This document shows, in pieces, positions 266-7,265 of a stretch of DNA of 7,265 nucleotides. Every line of letters starts with the position of its first letter. Positions within the stretch are counted from its first letter, which is position 1. The stretch is from a virus (taxonomy: Duplodnaviria; Heunggongvirae; Uroviricota; Caudoviricetes). Location: the IMG/VR virus record IMGVR_UViG_2609459803_000004. One strand, given 5' to 3'. Below the pieces are notes generated by a model. It was not told the origin of the DNA and ran no database searches. It worked only from the letters and a program-made list of their open reading frames with translations. The translations under genes were made by a program, and so were the position numbers.

Positions 266-300
266 ACAAGCCCTCGCGTTGAGGGCTTTACTGATTTTTT
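266..300 (+). terminator. Rho-independent terminator downstream of grxA, shared with the convergent ybjM 3' end
   Basis: Inverted repeat aagccctc (268-275) / gagggctt (281-288) with a 5-nt loop, followed by a T-run at 295-300. The ybjM stop codon (288-290) lies inside the stem. Confidence 0.6.
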
Positions 301-665
301 CTGTGCTGTGGTTTAAACAAACTACTGATAAATAAGAAACACAGTGCCCCCAGCGCACACCAGAACACCGCGCTTAGTAACCATGCCAGCTCTTGCCAGA
401 ATGAGCGCGTCGGTGAAAAAAACAGCCGCATAATGAGCATCGAACAGGGTGCCGCCAGCATTGCGCCAAACAGAGGTTTCAGGACTTCTCTACGCTGTGA
501 AAAGAAGCTGGCGACTGCTCCAGGAAGAATGAAAAATAGCAAGCCGATTTCAGGATGCCCGGCAGCCCGAAAAGCGCCTTTCATGTGCGTCGCCAGAAAA
601 AGGCACACCACAATGAAGAGGACAAAACAGCAGATTGCCCCCGCCCAACGTTGTTTATGTTTCAC
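288..665 (-). CDS. ybjM: Small inner-membrane protein YbjM
   Basis: 125-aa hydrophobic ORF, GTG start at 665 preceded by a perfect AGGAGG Shine-Dalgarno with 5-nt spacing (minus strand). Length and sequence match my recollection of E. coli YbjM; convergent with grxA as in E. coli. Confidence 0.85.
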   Translation of the reverse strand: MKHKQRWAGAICCFVLFIVVCLFLATHMKGAFRAAGHPEIGLLFFILPGAVASFFSQRREVLKPLFGAMLAAPCSMLIMRLFFSPTRSFWQELAWLLSAVFWCALGALCFLFISSLFKPQHRKNQ

Positions 666-934: not shown

Positions 935-2620
935 GTGAATATAAACGTCGCCGAATTGTTAAATGGGAATTACATTCTGTTATTATTTGTGGTCCTCGCG
1001 CTTGGGCTATGTCTCGGAAAGTTACGACTTGGTTCGATCCAACTGGGTAATTCCATTGGCGTTTTAGTCGTATCGCTGTTATTAGGCCAACAACATTTCA
1101 GCATTAACACCGATGCGCTTAATCTTGGCTTTATGCTGTTTATTTTCTGCGTCGGGGTCGAAGCCGGACCGAACTTTTTTTCCATTTTTTTTCGCGATGG
1201 GAAAAATTACCTAATGTTAGCACTGGTGATGGTTGGCAGTGCGCTGGTGATCGCCTTAGGGTTAGGTAAGCTGTTTGGCTGGGATATTGGCCTGACGGCC
1301 GGTATGTTAGCAGGCTCTATGACGTCGACACCGGTTCTGGTCGGTGCTGGCGATACACTGCGTCATTCCGGCATGGAAAGCAGGCAGCTCTCACTGGCAC
1401 TGGATAATCTGAGCCTCGGGTATGCCTTAACCTATTTAATCGGTCTGGTGAGTTTGATTGTTGGTGCGCGTTACTTGCCGAAATTGCAGCATCAGGACTT
1501 ACAGACCAGCGCCCAGCAAATCGCCCGCGAACGTGGCCTGGACACTGATGCCAACCGTAAGGTTTATTTACCGGTGATCCGCGCCTATCGCGTCGGCCCG
1601 GAACTGGTGGCCTGGACCGACGGCAAAAATCTGCGTGAACTGGGTATTTATCGACAAACCGGCTGCTACATTGAACGTATTCGACGTAACGGGATTCTGG
1701 CAAATCCAGACGGTGATGCCGTGCTACAAATGGGCGATGAAATAGCGTTGGTAGGCTATCCCGACGCCCATGCCCGACTCGATCCCAGCTTCCGTAACGG
1801 TAAAGAAGTTTTCGATCGTGACCTTCTCGACATGCGTATCGTCACTGAAGAAGTGGTCGTTAAAAACCATAACGCTGTAGGTAAACGTCTCGCACAACTG
1901 AAGTTGACCGATCACGGTTGCTTCCTTAACCGCGTCATTCGTAGCCAGATTGAGATGCCGATAGATGACAACGTCGTGCTTAACAAAGGTGACGTTTTAC
2001 AAGTCAGCGGCGATGCCCGCCGCGTAAAAACCATCGCCGATCGCATCGGCTTTATCTCGATTCACAGCCAGGTCACTGACCTGCTGGCATTCTGCGCCTT
2101 CTTTGTTATTGGGCTGATGATCGGGATGATCACCTTCCAGTTCAGCACATTCAGTTTCGGCATGGGGAACGCTGCCGGGTTGTTATTCGCCGGAATTATG
2201 CTGGGCTTTATGCGTGCTAACCACCCGACCTTCGGTTACATTCCGCAGGGTGCATTAAGCATGGTGAAAGAGTTCGGCTTGATGGTGTTTATGGCAGGCG
2301 TTGGTCTGAGCGCCGGTAGCGGTATTAATAACGGCCTGGGCGCGATTGGCGGTCAGATGTTGATTGCCGGATTGATTGTCAGTCTGGTGCCCGTGGTTAT
2401 CTGTTTCTTGTTCGGTGCTTATGTATTGCGAATGAACCGCGCGCTGTTGTTCGGCGCAATGATGGGCGCACGTACCTGCGCGCCGGCAATGGAGATCATC
2501 AGTGATACAGCTCGCAGTAACATCCCGGCGCTGGGCTATGCGGGCACCTATGCAATCGCCAACGTCCTGCTGACGCTGGCAGGGACAATCATCGTCATGG
2601 TATGGCCAGGATTAGGATAA
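935..2620 (+). CDS. ybjL: Putative transporter YbjL (AAE/YidE-type membrane protein with central cytoplasmic RCK_C/TrkA-C-like domains)
   Basis: 561-aa ORF with a GTG start. Hydrophobic N- and C-terminal halves flank a soluble central region; the translation matches my recollection of E. coli YbjL over its full length. Confidence 0.92.
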
Positions 2621-2696: not shown

Positions 2697-2775
2697 GCCA
2701 CTGCTTTTCTTTGATGTCCCCATTTTGTGGAGCCCATCAACCCCGCCATTTCGGTTCAAGGTTGATGGGTTTTTT
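2697..2775 (+). ncRNA. rybB: RybB small regulatory RNA (sigma-E-dependent, Hfq-binding repressor of outer-membrane protein mRNAs)
   Basis: Sequence gccactgcttttctttgatgtcccc... matches the RybB sRNA as I recall it, including the conserved 5' seed. It ends in a 10-bp perfect stem (cccatcaacc 2733-2742 / ggttgatggg 2760-2769) plus a T6 run (2770-2775). Position downstream of ybjL on the same strand as in E. coli. Confidence 0.85.
2733..2775 (+). terminator. Intrinsic terminator of rybB
   Basis: 10-bp perfect GC-rich stem with an internally paired loop, followed by tttttt. Confidence 0.8.
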
Positions 2776-2833
2776 GTTGCCTGAAATTTAAGCTGTTTAA
2801 AATCATGATGTTAGAAGCACTGTTTTTTAACGA

Positions 2834-2855
2834 TGGCGACAAAATGGCGGCAGCG
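2834..2855. repeat. Left copy of a 22-bp direct repeat (tggcgacaaaatggcggcagcg); candidate att core at the ogr-side prophage junction
   Basis: Matches 7226-7247 at 21 of 22 positions (a at 2844 versus g at 7236), in the same orientation. Directly abuts the ogr stop codon (2856-2858). Confidence 0.5.
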
Positions 2856-3074
2856 TCAAAGAGAGAGCGCCACCTGTCCTGATTTCATTGGATGCGGCTG
2901 AACCGGATTTGACTCTTTTGGCGTTGCAATCGAACGAACAAAAGTTTCATGGGTAACAAAAGTATGGCTGCAGTTAATGTTCTGGCACTGGTTGTAACGC
3001 TCTTTGGTCAATGAAGATACCTGAAAACTGCTGCGAGTATGGGCGGCACTTCCACACAGTGGGCAAATCATCAT
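2856..3074 (-). CDS. ogr: Ogr/Delta-family zinc-finger late-gene transcriptional activator
   Basis: Translation MICPLCGSAAHTRSS...KERYNQCQNINCSHTF... carries the C-x2-C...C-x4-C zinc-finger pattern of P2 Ogr. Proposed ATG at 3074 has a GGGAGA Shine-Dalgarno 9 nt upstream and gives 72 aa, the size I recall for P2 Ogr. The ORF track's longer version starts at GTG 3107. Confidence 0.85.
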   Translation of the reverse strand: MMICPLCGSAAHTRSSFQVSSLTKERYNQCQNINCSHTFVTHETFVRSIATPKESNPVQPHPMKSGQVALSL

Positions 3075-3164
3075 TTTTCGAGTTCTCCCCATTTTTGCTA
3101 AATTCACAATAATGATACCGCATTATTCCATTTTGCAAACTTAAAAGTTCTCCATTGCGAAGAA

Positions 3165-3635
3165 TCATTCCATTTCGAAATCATCAATCCTCACTTCAAG
3201 CTCCAGACTGGTCGTAAAACCGTTATCCGGGCTGACGGTATGCGTCAGAGTCGTAATGGTCCATTCCGCATCATCTATCGGCTGTTTAAAACCACTGACC
3301 TTCACAGGCATTTCCGTGTAGAGATCTGCCCGCCCTTCTGCCAGTTGTAGCGAGAATGACGCAACGCCACGTTGCAGGCGTTCCCACTGCATTTTCGCCG
3401 CCCGTTCGGCGTTGCTCCGGTTGGCATAGGTGCGATTAAGTACCAGCACGTTTTCATCTGTACCCACCAGGTAATCGCCCTGCTTCGCTTCCGGCTCTTT
3501 CTTCTGCTTCTTAGTCCTGCGCTTACGCTTCACCGTGGTGCTTTCTTTCTTCGCGGGTTCACCAGGCGTAACCTTGCTGCCAGTTCCCGGCACTCTTTTT
3601 TGCTCATACTGTGCAGGTAATCGTGCAACTCCTTG
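3165..3635 (-). pseudogene. 3' fragment of P2-family tail gene D (gpD C-terminal ~150 residues), no intact 5' end
   Basis: Lys/Arg-rich stretch followed by DYLVGT..NVL...YAN...RAAK...QRGVA.F...GFK..ID...W pattern, which matches my recollection of the gpD C-terminus. Sits immediately upstream of ogr on the same strand, as D precedes ogr in P2. The frame is open up to a stop at 3636-3638 and overlaps the end of the gene-A fragment in another frame. Confidence 0.6.
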
Positions 3636-4351
3636 TCATCCATGCGGGTAATATCCGTTCTGGTGTCCCCATCAGCTGATTTATCTTTCTCCTGTTGGTT
3701 CAAATTTTCAGCAAGGGGACAGTTATTGCCACGAGTCCAAGGGGCGCAAGCGCCCTGGTCGGCTACCGCCTCCTGAACGTCAACGGCCTTACGAACCATT
3801 TTCCACTTCACTGCATGAGTGCAGATCTTGCCCTCTGAAATGGGTGACCAGATGCCATAAATACGAATACCGTGATCGCCATAGGCGGTCGGCTCTTCGT
3901 TGATTTCATAAGCGGTTCTGATGAGGTGATATTTACGGGGAACCAGTACGCCGCCCTGCTTCATGATGTAGGAGGCAAAACAACCAGCATCAGCAGCAGC
4001 CAGGATGGCATCAAGGCGCGGGTTATCCAGTACCGGCGCACCTGCTTTTTTGTCCCCCTGTTGCCTTGCCGCCTGACCAGCCAGCAATCGCAGTTCACGG
4101 TAAGCCTGACGCCCCGGAATGCCAAAGAAGCGGAATTGCTGAACACGATGCAGAGACGCCCAGGCATTAACGTATTCAGCGTTATCACGCAGGGATTTAC
4201 CCGTTTCCTTGCTGATCTCACCAGCCAGACCACGCCCGTCAATGTTCTTACTGATGTATTTCGCGATGTAGCTTGTTGGCGTACCTTTGCGCGGGTTTGC
4301 CGGGCTTTGCTTTACCAGCAGCGATGCAAATGATGGTTCTTTCGTCAGCAT
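3530..4351 (-). pseudogene. Truncated gene-A-type rolling-circle replication initiator (retains the Tyr catalytic motif, lacks the N-terminal HUH part)
   Basis: Motif [14 protein letters not shown] matches the double-tyrosine active-site motif of phiX174/P2 gpA-type initiators (YxxKYxxK). No HUH motif lies upstream within the ORF. An ATG at 4351 has a GAGG Shine-Dalgarno overlapping the cII stop codon; the ORF track starts at GTG 4381. The 3' end runs out of frame into the D fragment. Confidence 0.7.
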
Positions 4352-4358
4352 AAGTACC

Positions 4359-4874
4359 TCACAGCAAACCAAATGAAGCACCGAGGCCAGTCACGGTATC
4401 AACTGCACTCGCCATCGCAGGGTTAGCCTGTAAACGGGCCTGCAATGAAACAGCAGCCAACGCCATCAGTCGTGTTACAGAGTTAATGCTGCTGATAGCA
4501 TCACGACGGCCTGCACTGGTTTTTACATCGCCAGATGCCGCACCTGCAGCAACACGCCCGATCTCTGCGGTTGCACTCATGACGTAATGTGGCAGTTTCT
4601 CTTTTGCCACCTCATTAATCGGTACACATGGCAGGCAGTGAATCTGAGCCAGAAAACCATCTACTAGCGTTGAATCTTCAGTCAGATCGGTAAGCAACCA
4701 GATTTCTGGTGCGGTTAATAAATGAGGTTGAGCTGGGTTCAGCTTGTTCCGCAGAATCTGCACATTCATGCCTGCACGTTCTGCCAGTTGCACCAGGTTG
4801 TGGCGCAGTGCGAATGCACGACAGGCTTCATCAAAATGTGGATGTTTGGAAACTTGGTAATCAAACATAGTCAA
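4359..4874 (-). CDS. cII: Phage 186-type CII lysogeny-establishment activator
   Basis: 171-aa ORF; translation ([19 protein letters not shown]...[27 protein letters not shown]...) matches my recollection of 186 CII (about 169 aa) along its length. GAGG Shine-Dalgarno 8 nt upstream of the ATG at 4874. Confidence 0.8.
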
Positions 4875-4887
4875 TGCCTCTGATGTA

Positions 4888-4929
4888 TTTCAGAATCGAA
4901 CTAATTAAGGTTTAGATTGCATTCTGAAA
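4888..4929. promoter_or_regulatory. 9-bp perfect inverted repeat (tttcagaat / attctgaaa) spanning the apl-cII junction
   Basis: Arms at 4888-4896 and 4921-4929, separated by 24 bp, overlapping the apl 3' end and the cII leader. Candidate protein-binding site or RNA structure; no U-run follows, so it is not an intrinsic terminator. Confidence 0.3.
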
Positions 4930-5122
4930 GCGCATCAACGGTCATGGCTGCTATGTTGATCATCACTTTTTCGCGTTTTTTATCTTTGCGCAAACGGTGA
5001 CGGATAAGGCGTCCATCAGCCAACATGTCATTGATAGTATCGATGGACAGCCCTGTCAGCTCGCTATAGCGTTCAATAGTCACATGAGGCGTGGTAAGAG
5101 TGATTGAAATGTTAGGTCTCAT
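4901..5122 (-). CDS. Apl/Cox-like small DNA-binding regulator (excisionase / lytic-side repressor analogue)
   Basis: 73-aa basic ORF with a helix-turn-helix-like segment (ERYSELTGLSIDTINDMLADGRL). It is the first gene of the operon transcribed away from cI, immediately upstream of cII, as apl is in phage 186. Confidence 0.5.
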   Translation of the reverse strand: MRPNISITLTTPHVTIERYSELTGLSIDTINDMLADGRLIRHRLRKDKKREKVMINIAAMTVDALSECNLNLN

Positions 5123-5247
5123 GATGCAACATTCCTCGTTTAATGATGATTAATCAGGACGAATACGAATCGTTTGTATTTTGTGAACACCATAAACATA
5201 CGATCGCACAGTGAAATCGTCAAGACAAAAGTTCACTTGGAGTGACC
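5123..5247. promoter_or_regulatory. Immunity switch region between the apl-like gene and cI (promoters and operators)
   Basis: AT-rich 125-bp region containing the perfect palindrome tgattaatca (5147-5156), the inverted pair gtgaac (5183-5188) / gttcac (5231-5236), and additional gtgaa/gtgac motifs at 5211 and 5242. Confidence 0.5.
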
Positions 5248-5817
5248 ATGAATTTGGAGAAAGGCGGACGAGGCGCTATAGAGCGCATGGTAGAAGCTTA
5301 TGGATTCAAGACTCGACAGGCGTTGTGCGATCATTTAGGAATCTCTAAAAGTACACTCGCCACACGCTACATGCGTGACTCATTCCCAGCAGAATGGGTA
5401 ATCCAGTGCGCCCTTGAAACAGGCACTTCGCTTAATTGGCTCACAACCGGGCATGGTTCAAAGCAAACTTCAGGTAATACAAATACTATGGAAGTTGCTA
5501 AATATGTATTATCTGATGGGGCTTTGTGTGAAGACGGTTTTTATATTTTCGATAGAGAATTTCTACCGTCGGCATTCAAGAATCTTTTTGTAATCACAGA
5601 TAATAATTCTGAATTTATTTGTGATAAGGAATTTGATGATATACGTGATGGTAAATGGGTAATAAGTATTGATGGCGAAATAACGATCCGTGACATTACT
5701 CGTTTACCCGGTGGAAGAATCTTCGTCGAGGGTGGAAACAGAGCCTTCGAATGTAAGATAGAAGACATTGAAATAATTGGTAAAATTATAAGTTTAACAG
5801 TCAAGTATGTTAAATAG
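5248..5817 (+). CDS. cI: Phage 186-type CI immunity repressor (N-terminal HTH, C-terminal oligomerisation-type domain)
   Basis: N-terminus ...AYGFKTRQALCDHLGISKSTLATRYMRDSFPAEWVIQCALETGTSLNWLTTGHG matches the 186 CI-family HTH domain as I recall it. Size (189-191 aa) is close to 186 CI. GGAG Shine-Dalgarno 6 nt upstream of the ATG at 5248; the ORF track begins at GTG 5242. Confidence 0.8.
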   Translation: MNLEKGGRGAIERMVEAYGFKTRQALCDHLGISKSTLATRYMRDSFPAEWVIQCALETGTSLNWLTTGHGSKQTSGNTNTMEVAKYVLSDGALCEDGFYIFDREFLPSAFKNLFVITDNNSEFICDKEFDDIRDGKWVISIDGEITIRDITRLPGGRIFVEGGNRAFECKIEDIEIIGKIISLTVKYVK

Positions 5818-5832
5818 TACCGGGAGGAAACT

Positions 5833-6024
5833 ATGCTTGGTAAGGTATTTTTTGTGGTTTTATCATGTTCTTTGTTATTAAACCCACTAACTACCTATGC
5901 TAGAAATTATCCCTGCTCAGGGAAAAAGGGAGGTGTTTCTCACTGTACCTCAGATGGCAAATTCGTTTGCAATGATGGAACTATTAGTAAATCCAAAAAA
6001 ATCTGTACTAAAAACTCACGATAA
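5833..6024 (+). CDS. Small secreted cationic Cys-rich protein of unknown function
   Basis: 63-aa ORF with a strong GGGAGGA Shine-Dalgarno 4 nt upstream. Predicted signal peptide ([23 protein letters not shown], AxA-like cleavage after TYA), then a ~40-aa Lys-rich mature peptide with 4 Cys. AT-rich, and placed between cI and int. Confidence 0.55.
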
Positions 6025-6212
6025 CTTTTGCTTTTATATCTGCGTCTAAAATAAAAATGAGCCGCAGGTTAACCGCAAAAGTTACATGCTCACATAGCAA
6101 AAAGAATAGCCAACTTCATTATGGCTTCAGTGAGATGTATGGTCGTAGGATTTCATACATTGACACTGGTTATACATACAGTAAAAATGCTCTCTACTGG
6201 AGGGCATTTTTT

Positions 6213-7265
6213 ATGGCAGTACGAAAACTCACCACAGGGAAATGGCTTTGCGAATGTTACCCCGCCGGACGAAGTGGGCGTCGTGTGCGTAAACAATTCG
6301 CCACCAAAGGCGAAGCTCTGGCTTTTGAGCGTCACACTATGGAAGAAACCGAATCAAAGCCATGGCTGGGCGAATCAGTGGATCGTCGAACCCTGAAAGA
6401 CGTGGTTGAGCTATGGTTCAAACTACATGGTAAATCTCTGACTGCTGGGCAGCATGTCTATGACAAATTGCTGCTGATGGTTGGCGCTCTGGGCAATCCT
6501 CTTGCAACCGATCTCACCTCTAAAATGTTTGCCCACTATCGAGATAAACGCCTGACAGGCGAGATCTACTTCAGCGAGAAATGGAAGAAAGGAGCAAGCC
6601 CGGTCACCATTAACCTGGAGCAAAGCTATCTAAGTAGTGTTTTTAGCGAACTATCCCGTCTGGGCGAATGGTCGTATCCGAACCCACTGGAGAACATGCG
6701 AAAATTCACCATCGCAGAAAAAGAGATGGCATGGCTTACCCATGAGCAGATTGTTGAATTACTGGCTGATTGCAAACGTCAGGACCCAATTCTAGCACTG
6801 GTAGTTAAGATATGCTTAAGCACAGGCGCACGCTGGCGAGAAGCCGTAAATCTTACTCGTTCACAGGTGACCAAATACCGAATTACCTTTGTAAGAACGA
6901 AGGGGAAGAAAAACAGAAGTATCCCTATCAGTAAAGAGCTTTACGAAGAGATCATGGCGCTTGATGGATTCAATTTCTTCACAGACTGCTATTTTCAATT
7001 TTTATCCGTGATGGAAAAAACGTCTATCGTGCTCCCTCGCGGTCAACTCACACACGTTCTGCGCCATACGTTTGCGGCGCACTTCATGATGTCGGGTGGA
7101 AACATTCTGGCCTTACAAAAAATTCTCGGACACCACGATATAAAAATGACTATGCGTTACGCACATCTGGCACCGGATCATCTGGAAACGGCGCTCCGTT
7201 TCAATCCTCTGGCAACGCTGCCAAGTGGCGACAAAGTGGCGGCAGCGGTTGGCATTACCCCGTAA
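6213..7265 (+). CDS. int: P2-family tyrosine integrase
   Basis: N-terminus MAVRKLTTGKWLCECYP...RVRKQFATKGEALAFE and C-terminal catalytic region (LSTGARWREA; HVLRHTFAAHFMMSGGNILALQKILGH...MRYAHLAP with the R, H-x-x-R and Y residues) match P2 Int-type recombinases. GGAGGG Shine-Dalgarno 8 nt upstream of the ATG at 6213. The ORF track's 402-aa version from 6057 is probably a spurious N-terminal extension. Confidence 0.9.
   Translation: MAVRKLTTGKWLCECYPAGRSGRRVRKQFATKGEALAFERHTMEETESKPWLGESVDRRTLKDVVELWFKLHGKSLTAGQHVYDKLLLMVGALGNPLATDLTSKMFAHYRDKRLTGEIYFSEKWKKGASPVTINLEQSYLSSVFSELSRLGEWSYPNPLENMRKFTIAEKEMAWLTHEQIVELLADCKRQDPILALVVKICLSTGARWREAVNLTRSQVTKYRITFVRTKGKKNRSIPISKELYEEIMALDGFNFFTDCYFQFLSVMEKTSIVLPRGQLTHVLRHTFAAHFMMSGGNILALQKILGHHDIKMTMRYAHLAPDHLETALRFNPLATLPSGDKVAAAVGITP
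7226..7247. repeat. Right copy of the 22-bp direct repeat (tggcgacaaagtggcggcagcg); candidate att core inside the int 3' end
   Basis: 21 of 22 identity with 2834-2855. Lies in the codons for ...GDKVAAA, 6 codons before the int stop. Confidence 0.5.

Follow-up and report, generated by a model that had tools for sequence, protein, structure and literature searches.

The 7,265-nucleotide virus record IMGVR_UViG_2609459803_000004 of IMG/VR, referred to in its full length as the window, begins with host genes and runs into phage DNA behind the small RNA gene rybB. We conclude that this phage DNA is very probably a decayed prophage remnant of the coliphage 186 type (P2 family, Peduoviridae), inserted at the 3' end of rybB, and that it represents an ordinary stage of decay and no newly evolved device. 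The window contains grxA (1-258), ybjM (288-665, minus strand), ybjL (935-2620, plus strand) and rybB, followed by phage DNA up to its final base. The rybB gene itself (2700-2778, plus strand) is intact (Rfam RF00110, 105.3 bits, model positions 1-79 of 79), and the region is identical to the empty site of E. coli K-12 as far as the attachment core. The remnant spans position 2779 to the window-equivalent position 7353, which amounts to 4,575 bp from core to core. A sequence-only reading of the same DNA had described a minimised 186-like (P2-family) prophage at 2834-7265; the kind of element stands, while its start has to be moved to 2779 and its end lies beyond the window. Over its whole length the window is 100% identical to a part of a 198-kb contig of the assembly GCA_000700425.1.

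Gene content and order place the element in the 186 group of the P2 family. A gene of the Ogr/Delta zinc-finger type lies at one attachment end, 78 nt from the attL core. A repressor gene with CI_repr and CI_C domains is divergent from a Cox/Apl-like gene, which is followed by a cII gene (CP76), and a tyrosine integrase gene occupies the other attachment end, with arm sites flanking a core that is shared with the host. The arrangement is collinear with a complete member of the group, a prophage of strain FDAARGOS_1248 (locus L019; 33,403 bp from core to core), which carries the full P2/186 gene set and a DinI-like tum homologue beyond the replication gene A. BLAST aligns the window with this prophage in three collinear blocks (L019 positions 42-836, 26365-27108 and 30402-33370) at 97.7-98.2% identity. 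The remnant is thus an L019-type prophage minus 25,528 bp and 3,293 bp. The gene set of a functional prophage is lacking, as L019 837-26364 and 27109-30401 are absent and only fragments of the tail gene D and of A are left. The window holds no capsid gene, lysis gene, cos or tum, and its tail genes are reduced to the D fragment, in line with the earlier statement that capsid, tail, lysis and complete replication genes are missing. None of the eight window proteins matched a PADLOC model, so that the element does not qualify as a known defence system. A reading as a P4-like or other satellite was rejected because the element lacks the cos region and a functional A (the replicase), although Ogr and an ori-like sequence are still there; no satellite family was matched by the window proteins in PHROGs or Pfam.

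Both deletions can be placed precisely. Junction 1 (3554-3560) joins D to the 3' region of A and removes L019 837-26364, which holds the tail, lysis, capsid, terminase and portal genes, cos, cargo, the tum-like gene and the 3' end of A. Its microhomology is 3-7 bp: the BLAST chains overlap by 7 bp, and the parental sequences read GGTTC and GTTT(C/A). Junction 2 (4297-4298) joins A to codon 18 of fil with a microhomology of TT and removes L019 27109-30401, with the 5' half of A, dam, a traR-like gene, genes for DUF2732 and DUF5347 proteins and most of fil. What is left of D is a 3' fragment of about 131 codons (3165-3560, minus strand; Pfam Phage_GPD, profile positions 199-302 of 305), collinear with the L019 42-836 block. 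The internal fragment of A (3554-4297, minus strand; PHROG 91 'nicking at origin of replication', profile positions 453-686 of 852) aligns to residues 433-655 of 186 A. It is missing its N-terminal half as well as 69 codons at the 3' end, keeps the tyrosine motif YIAKYISK and contains a 186-like ori sequence (3720-3755) that matches 186 around position 28576. The history of the element is short. The parent phage integrated through Int at a 14-bp core, its own copy of the core restoring the terminator of the rybB small RNA. Two illegitimate deletions at microhomologies of 2-7 bp then took out 25.5 kb and 3.3 kb, leaving the two prophage ends, with ogr at the left and cII-apl and cI-ydcA-like-int at the right.

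The two deletions also created an open reading frame of 273 codons (3530-4351, minus strand), in which the first 18 fil codons (4298-4351) continue in frame into the A fragment and which reads out of frame into D-derived sequence before it stops. We presume that this fil'-'A fusion is a non-functional by-product of the two events. It lies under the promoter pR and serves as an exact marker for the lineage of the remnant. The identical 273-residue protein is encoded on three contigs from at least two samples, and this bears on the idea that the element is an assembly artefact or chimera of a single draft genome. The pair of junctions seen in the window is absent from all 5,426 complete E. coli genomes (best coverage 83%), as such an artefact would have it. 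However, one of the three contigs with the exact fusion across junction 2 is the 198-kb contig, which has normal host flanks and to which the window is 100% identical, and both junctions show ordinary microhomology, so that an artefact is hardly credible. Because the exact fusion is found on three contigs and the junction pair in no complete genome, we take the arrangement to be genuine and restricted to one narrow lineage.

The attachment site could be defined by comparing the K-12 empty site, the window, the right junction of strain A134_1EC and an attP-like tandem junction in FDAARGOS_1248. The core is ATGGGTTTTTTGTT, which in attL forms the last 14 nt of rybB (2765-2778, plus strand), so that phage DNA starts at 2779; the 3' half of the rybB terminator and its T-run make up the core. 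The attR copy lies at window-equivalent 7340-7353, 75 nt past the end of the window, and is seen in the source contig. The sequence-only reading had taken a 22-bp direct repeat (2834-2855 and 7226-7247, 21 of 22 positions identical) for the two core copies. Both copies are phage DNA, however, and flank the core in attP at a distance of about 55-115 bp. Each consists of two TGGCG(A/G)C elements in tandem: the pair at 2834-2855 (plus strand; TGGCGAC/TGGCGGC, 11-bp spacing) belongs to the P' arm, and the pair at 7226-7247 (plus strand; AAGTGGCGACA and AAGTGGCGGCA), which overlaps the 3' end of int, to the P arm. The 186 record annotates an arm-type consensus for Int, YAYCGCCAYTY, and AAATGGCGGCA and AAGTGGCG(A/G)CA agree with its reverse complement at 10 of 11 positions. 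The repeats are therefore the P and P' arm sites for Int, and the true core copies are the one in rybB and the one outside the window.

The tandem in FDAARGOS_1248 (NZ_CP069542.1, about 3.54-3.61 Mb) consists of two intact 186-like prophages at rybB (L001 and L019), arranged as int of the first, attP-like junction and ogr of the second; it is thus a natural attP in which core and arms can be read. In other rybB-site elements variable inserts occur between int and the P arm: a 333-bp hypothetical gene (L004, 23707-24039), a 270-bp hypothetical gene (L012-L015) or a Panacea-domain gene pair (L022, 8627-9855). The 3' ends of int diverge along with these inserts, which mark a second variable cargo position near attR that is absent from the window element.

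Five genes of the remnant, namely int, cI, the apl-like gene, cII and ogr, had been described as full length, and all five indeed align end to end with intact homologues; int, cI and cII carry no frameshift or truncation. Protein identities were obtained by local tblastn, with the FDAARGOS_1248 prophages L001/L019 as the intact reference. The late-gene activator gene ogr (2856-3074, minus strand; 72 residues; Pfam Ogr_Delta PF04606, E 7e-22) encodes a protein identical at 72 of 72 residues to those of L001/L019, BL21 and Klebsiella phage 4LV2017, and 54% identical to B of 186. Its upstream region (3075-3164, minus strand) is identical to that of the intact prophage at 90 of 90 nt and contains a predicted promoter, TTTGCA-16-TATCAT at 3139-3112, according to a consensus scan. 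The lysogeny-establishment regulator CII (4359-4868, minus strand; 169 residues; Pfam Phage_CP76, positions 1-146 of 146, E 7e-42) is 98.8% identical to the intact prophage protein and 69% identical to that of 186 over 169 of 169 residues. An Apl/Cox-like excisionase and repressor follows (4901-5122, minus strand; 73 residues; PHROG 575, E 6e-31, profile positions 1-68 of 71). It has no Pfam match and no similarity to 186 Apl that local tblastn detects, and it is 100% identical to the protein of the intact prophage. Between apl and cI lies the divergent switch region (5123-5247), with pR reading leftward, for which the consensus scan gives the candidate TTGACG-17-TATGTT at 5223-5195, and pL reading rightward; it differs from the intact prophage at 4 of 125 nt. 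The immunity repressor gene cI (5248-5817, plus strand; 189 residues) is of the 186 type, with Pfam Phage_CI_repr (1-64 of 65) and Phage_CI_C (2-100 of 101). A Peptidase_S24 match stays below the Pfam threshold, in agreement with the earlier remark that no canonical S24-type autocleavage motif is seen in the C-terminal domain of this CI. The protein is 100% identical to CI of L019 and 33% identical to 186 CI. The tyrosine integrase (6213-7265, plus strand; 350 residues; Pfam Int_N and Phage_integrase) is 99.4% identical to that of the intact prophage and 54% identical to 186 Int over 346 of 350 residues.

The gene list of the sequence-only reading was correct for these five genes, but it omitted the D fragment, the fil'-'A fusion and a gene for a 63-residue YdcA-family protein (5833-6024, plus strand; NCBIfam NF007463, 115.8 bits against a cut-off of 93; PHROG 6000; PF27300). 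The YdcA-like protein has a hydrophobic N terminus and four cysteines in the remaining ~40 residues, and its gene is found in every remnant and every intact prophage of the same type that we examined. It represents a moron between cI and int, and its position suggests co-transcription with both. In the heteroimmune relatives L021 and L023 a gene for a KAP-family P-loop NTPase lies at this position, and one of them has a second cI-like gene there in addition; the gap between cI and int looks like a cargo slot. The 188 nt between the ydcA-like gene and int contain a 15-nt inverted repeat, TAACTTTTGCTTTTA and TAACCGCAAAAGTTA, with 33 nt between the arms (6022-6084), and a promoter-like TTGACA-17-AAAAAT just upstream of int (6160-6188, plus strand). 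Judging from these two elements int may have its own control, unlike in 186, where int directly follows cI.

In 186, the SOS-controlled antirepressor Tum is the only route to induction. The corresponding Tum/DinI-like gene, located beyond A in intact relatives, was deleted from the remnant, in agreement with the earlier observation that the window has no Tum gene. By analogy with 186, CI made from pL would keep pR shut, so that apl, cII and the fil'-'A fusion would be silent, and CI would probably also shut the ogr promoter. With the tum homologue gone, SOS induction could not inactivate CI, and the switch would be locked in the lysogenic state, because the sole induction route known from 186 has lost its gene. 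Apl would then not be made and excision would not occur, although all sequence components for it are intact, namely Int, the excisionase, the arm sites and both cores, the right one in the source contig. On this analysis the host would probably be homoimmune to phages that carry the same CI, offer no free attB and express a small YdcA-like protein. Several points weigh against this part of our account. We infer cI expression, the locked switch and immunity from 186. A search for operator motifs shared by the pR/pL region and the ogr promoter gave only the 8-mer GAACTTTT and loose GTGAAC-type half-sites, too little to define CI operators or to conclude that ogr is repressed by CI in this phage. 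Control of ogr by CI is thus extrapolated from 186, whose repressor shares only 33% identity.

To judge how often such remnants occur, we surveyed 5,426 complete E. coli genomes with K-12 flanks of three lengths, which were joined only across a short enough insert. The flanks lay within 0.8 kb of each other in 4,294 genomes, within 5.5 kb in 4,301 and within 13 kb in 4,327, the last being approximate: the search with 25-kb flanks, on which the count of inserts of 5.5-13 kb rests, took up to 40 matching pieces per record, a number that 2,092 records reached. A small remnant thus occupies rybB in only about 7 of the 5,426 genomes. A large insert is present in about 1,100, in agreement with the 1,176 genomes that carry this type of cII. 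With the source locus and 2.5-kb flanks as query, at least seven loci of up to 5.5 kb were found; six were examined, and the seventh, EC06, equals A134_1EC in span and identity. Taking small and larger remnants together, we count at least 15 different remnant architectures at rybB. The annotation shows ogr, apl, cI and the ydcA-like gene intact at each of 16 comparison loci, and int is kept as well, with an internal stop in one of them (strain E3, CM130010). By contrast, cII is truncated or absent in 9 of the 16, the window not counted.

One of these losses can be dated by comparison of close relatives. BL21 and REL606 are both recent laboratory derivatives of E. coli B. REL606 keeps the early region, whereas BL21 lacks 3,369 bp between the imperfect repeats CAGCTACCCGCAC and CAGATACCGCAC (L004 of BL21, 20908-20914, against L024 of REL606, 1217 and 4575). 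The loss covers the 3' part of cII, fil, the DUF5347 and DUF2732 genes, the traR-like gene, dam and the 5' part of A. As REL606 retains this region, the deletion arose after the split of the two B derivatives and is very recent, and such deletions can evidently arise between closely related strains.

Remnants of intermediate size (13-14.5 kb) are found in 2017.11.01CC (L018), in APEC O78 and at least 15 similar genomes (L020) and in E2 and about 10 similar genomes (L021). All capsid, tail and lysis genes are lost from them. They keep a part of the terminase or portal genes, and with it the adjoining region where cos of the P2 family lies; cos itself was not located. They further keep tum, an intact A, the whole early region, the switch, int and ogr, as well as a cargo hotspot with TIR-, PIN- or KAP-NTPase-type genes. 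To judge from gene content, this is the set that a helper-dependent, P2-derived satellite would need, and these remnants might act as such.

The sequence-only reading had seen in the retained genes a sign of selection. This finds no backing in our data, as small remnants are rare, their junctions are heterogeneous and cII or int is lost in some of them. Instead, internal deletion combined with a filter against derepression accounts for the kept ends with high probability. The kept genes would simply be the terminal ones: ogr sits at attL, int at attR, and the cI switch within 2.2 kb of attR. Loss of cI while fil, A and other pR-driven early genes remain would lead to derepression, which is expected to be harmful. 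Terminal position and this filter together mean that survival of the end genes needs no positive selection. Some observations fit this explanation less well. All seven small remnants, as counted from the flanks only, keep intact ogr, apl, cI and the ydcA-like gene, and we estimate that under a uniform random-endpoint model retention in a small remnant is only moderately likely, roughly 0.4 per event. Moreover, no retained gene of the window carries an inactivating mutation.

The same pattern could be expected of a domesticated immunity module, in which positive selection would have kept cI, apl, int and ogr because CI protects against common 186-like phages of the rybB site, and to which the YdcA-like moron may add a further benefit. 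A homoimmune challenge is plausible, given that related prophages are present in about 20% of the complete E. coli genomes, and an intact prophage with a 100% identical CI exists. The integrity of ogr, apl, cI and the ydcA-like gene in 16 of 16 comparison loci, as in the window, is in line with such a module, however these loci were partly picked by similarity to the same genes and are thus a biased sample. Likewise, the retained genes differ from the intact prophage at 47 nt but only 5 amino acids, mostly at synonymous sites; yet this excess is uninformative about selection after the deletions, because it mostly accumulated in functional phages before them. The exact remnant is known from three draft contigs only, and post-deletion divergence is too small for measuring constraint. 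Finally, small remnants are rare, this one is in no complete genome, the heterogeneous junctions point to recent independent decay rather than to an old conserved module, and position plus derepression filter explain the pattern without any benefit. We therefore regard a domesticated module as improbable.

A second selective explanation concerns Ogr alone: an orphan ogr could switch on late promoters, prematurely or ectopically, in P2-like phages or P4-like satellites that enter the cell, and thereby interfere with them or help them. The full-length Ogr, its complete identity to the Ogr of intact phages and the unchanged upstream region are compatible with activity, and Slettan et al. (J Bacteriol, 1992) reportedly found cryptic ogr genes in E. 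coli K-12 and B to be functional. Against this, the annotation of the 186 record gives pB, the promoter of the ogr homologue B, two CI sites and describes it as repressed by CI, with Tum as the antirepressor. B is thus repressed in lysogens, and the remnant keeps cI, which weakens the earlier proposal of a constitutive Ogr-based interference. In addition, a supply of Ogr would help a P2-like phage and not hinder it, and ogr, as the terminal gene beside attL, needs no function to survive. We consider a role of this kind very unlikely.

Decay by internal deletion is thus the preferred explanation, but decay does not have to be random. We mapped the deletion endpoints of the related loci L002-L005, L011-L018 and L020-L023 on L019 and found that in remnants of unrelated strains endpoints are reused to the nucleotide with different partners. 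An endpoint in cII (...CAGATA/CCGCACC, L019 30642) has six partners, namely D 1197, U 1845, D 556, T 2951, A 27279 and a fragment in BE2-5. An endpoint in D (...GGCGGGTA, L019 1197) has three (cII 30642, A 27361 and terminase 20880), another in D (...CATCATCTA, L019 556) has two, both of them cII positions, and one in T (...CAGATA, L019 2951) has two as well. The window equivalents are 4536-4544 for the cII site and about 3275-3280 and 3554-3567 for the D sites, L019 1197 being deleted in the window. The endpoints of the window itself (L019 836 and 27108) fall within 7-14 bp of endpoints in BL21, ET896 and E300010. The dinucleotide TA is found at about 13 of 20 junctions, compared to 4.1% of the prophage dinucleotides. 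Two of the events at the cII site use imperfect homologies of 11-12 nt, and the rest share only TA. The loss by which BL21 differs from REL606 is one deletion of this kind.

Several candidates for the cause of this reuse were considered. Inspection of the sequences at the reused endpoints gave no Chi site and no convincing dif/Xer-like site. The endpoints bear no resemblance to the 186-type ori nick region. The prophage's own invertase was rejected since its sites have AA/TT centres and the Din-family consensus is unlike the junctions. An insertion at cII, such as an IS, is not indicated either, as none of the sampled records with a broken cII probe gave a second match. Recombination between tandem prophages and transfer of junctions between strains do not explain the reuse, by reasoning only. 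It is a tentative and rather doubtful idea that 186-like prophages at rybB erode non-randomly, with deletions recurring at the same sites. That many remnants end just left of apl-cI may be due to a break hot spot in cII instead of selection. If this were true, and if a break-making activity or a DNA structure were behind the reuse, a defined mechanism would repeatedly carve immunity-only remnants, such as that of the window, out of prophages of the P2 family. Products of intermediate size (about 13-14.5 kb), which would keep cos, A, int, cI and ogr, might in that case behave as P2-derived satellites.

The element can be compared with several known systems. Coliphage 186 (Eganvirus ev186, NC_001317) shares the order B/ogr - attP - int - cI - (pL/pR) - apl - cII - fil, the two-domain CI without S24 autocleavage, a CII of 169 residues, the Int arm consensus and the ori-like sequence inside A. 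It differs in its integration site, which is the tRNA-Ile gene ileY and not the 3' end of rybB, and it has no counterpart to the YdcA-like gene between cI and int, while 86% of the genome, tum included, is deleted in the window element. With a CI that is only 33% identical and a dissimilar Apl, immunity specificity differs from that of 186. The FDAARGOS_1248 prophage L019 has identical CI, Apl and Ogr and serves as the parental template, but is a complete 33.4-kb prophage. Klebsiella phage 4LV2017 / KP12 likewise has a complete phage genome; Int, CII and Ogr of 4LV2017 are 98.9%, 99.4% and 100% identical, in contrast to a CI of 48% identity.

The kind of element and its site are already published. 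P2-type elements of E. coli W, B and Crooks (Rybb*W, Rybb*B and Rybb*Cr) are listed as inserted at the 'rybB ncRNA', and the B element carries the retron Ec86 (Archer et al. 2011, PMC3032704). Our comparison with the BL21 locus confirms this listing, and the BL21 record annotates the retron of the B element as St85-family. Rybb*B occupies the same site (ybjL/rybB to rcdA) and is likewise defective through internal deletions. Its Ogr and Apl are 100%, its CI 98.4% and its Int 96% identical to those of the window, whereas it measures about 21 kb and still holds many genes for tail and head as well as the retron, all of which the window element lacks. Rybb*W and Rybb*Cr share the insertion site according to the table in the same paper. 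The K-12 remnant ogrK-yegZ at cyaR, which we know from its listing there as 'ogr-D'', resembles the window element in its terminal ogr and 3' fragment of D, but uses another attachment site and no longer has the end that carries immunity and integration genes. The ogr-D end of P2-like prophages thus commonly survives.

The window therefore shows a cryptic P2/186-type remnant in a published site, which is a routine result of annotation. What is gained are the corrected boundaries, with the core in the rybB terminator, the corrected anatomy of the attachment sites, with the repeats recognised as arm sites, and a precise record of the deletions. Gene callers will annotate a spurious fil-A fusion protein of 273 residues in such DNA. 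For the strain itself, the analysis suggests that it is probably immune to the common 186-like phages of the rybB site and offers them no free attB. Beyond this single case, one type of prophage is found at a single locus in at least 15 versions that differ in their deletions, with reused endpoints and with one deletion that separates two E. coli B derivatives; this series may merit a study of its own on how prophages are dismantled.

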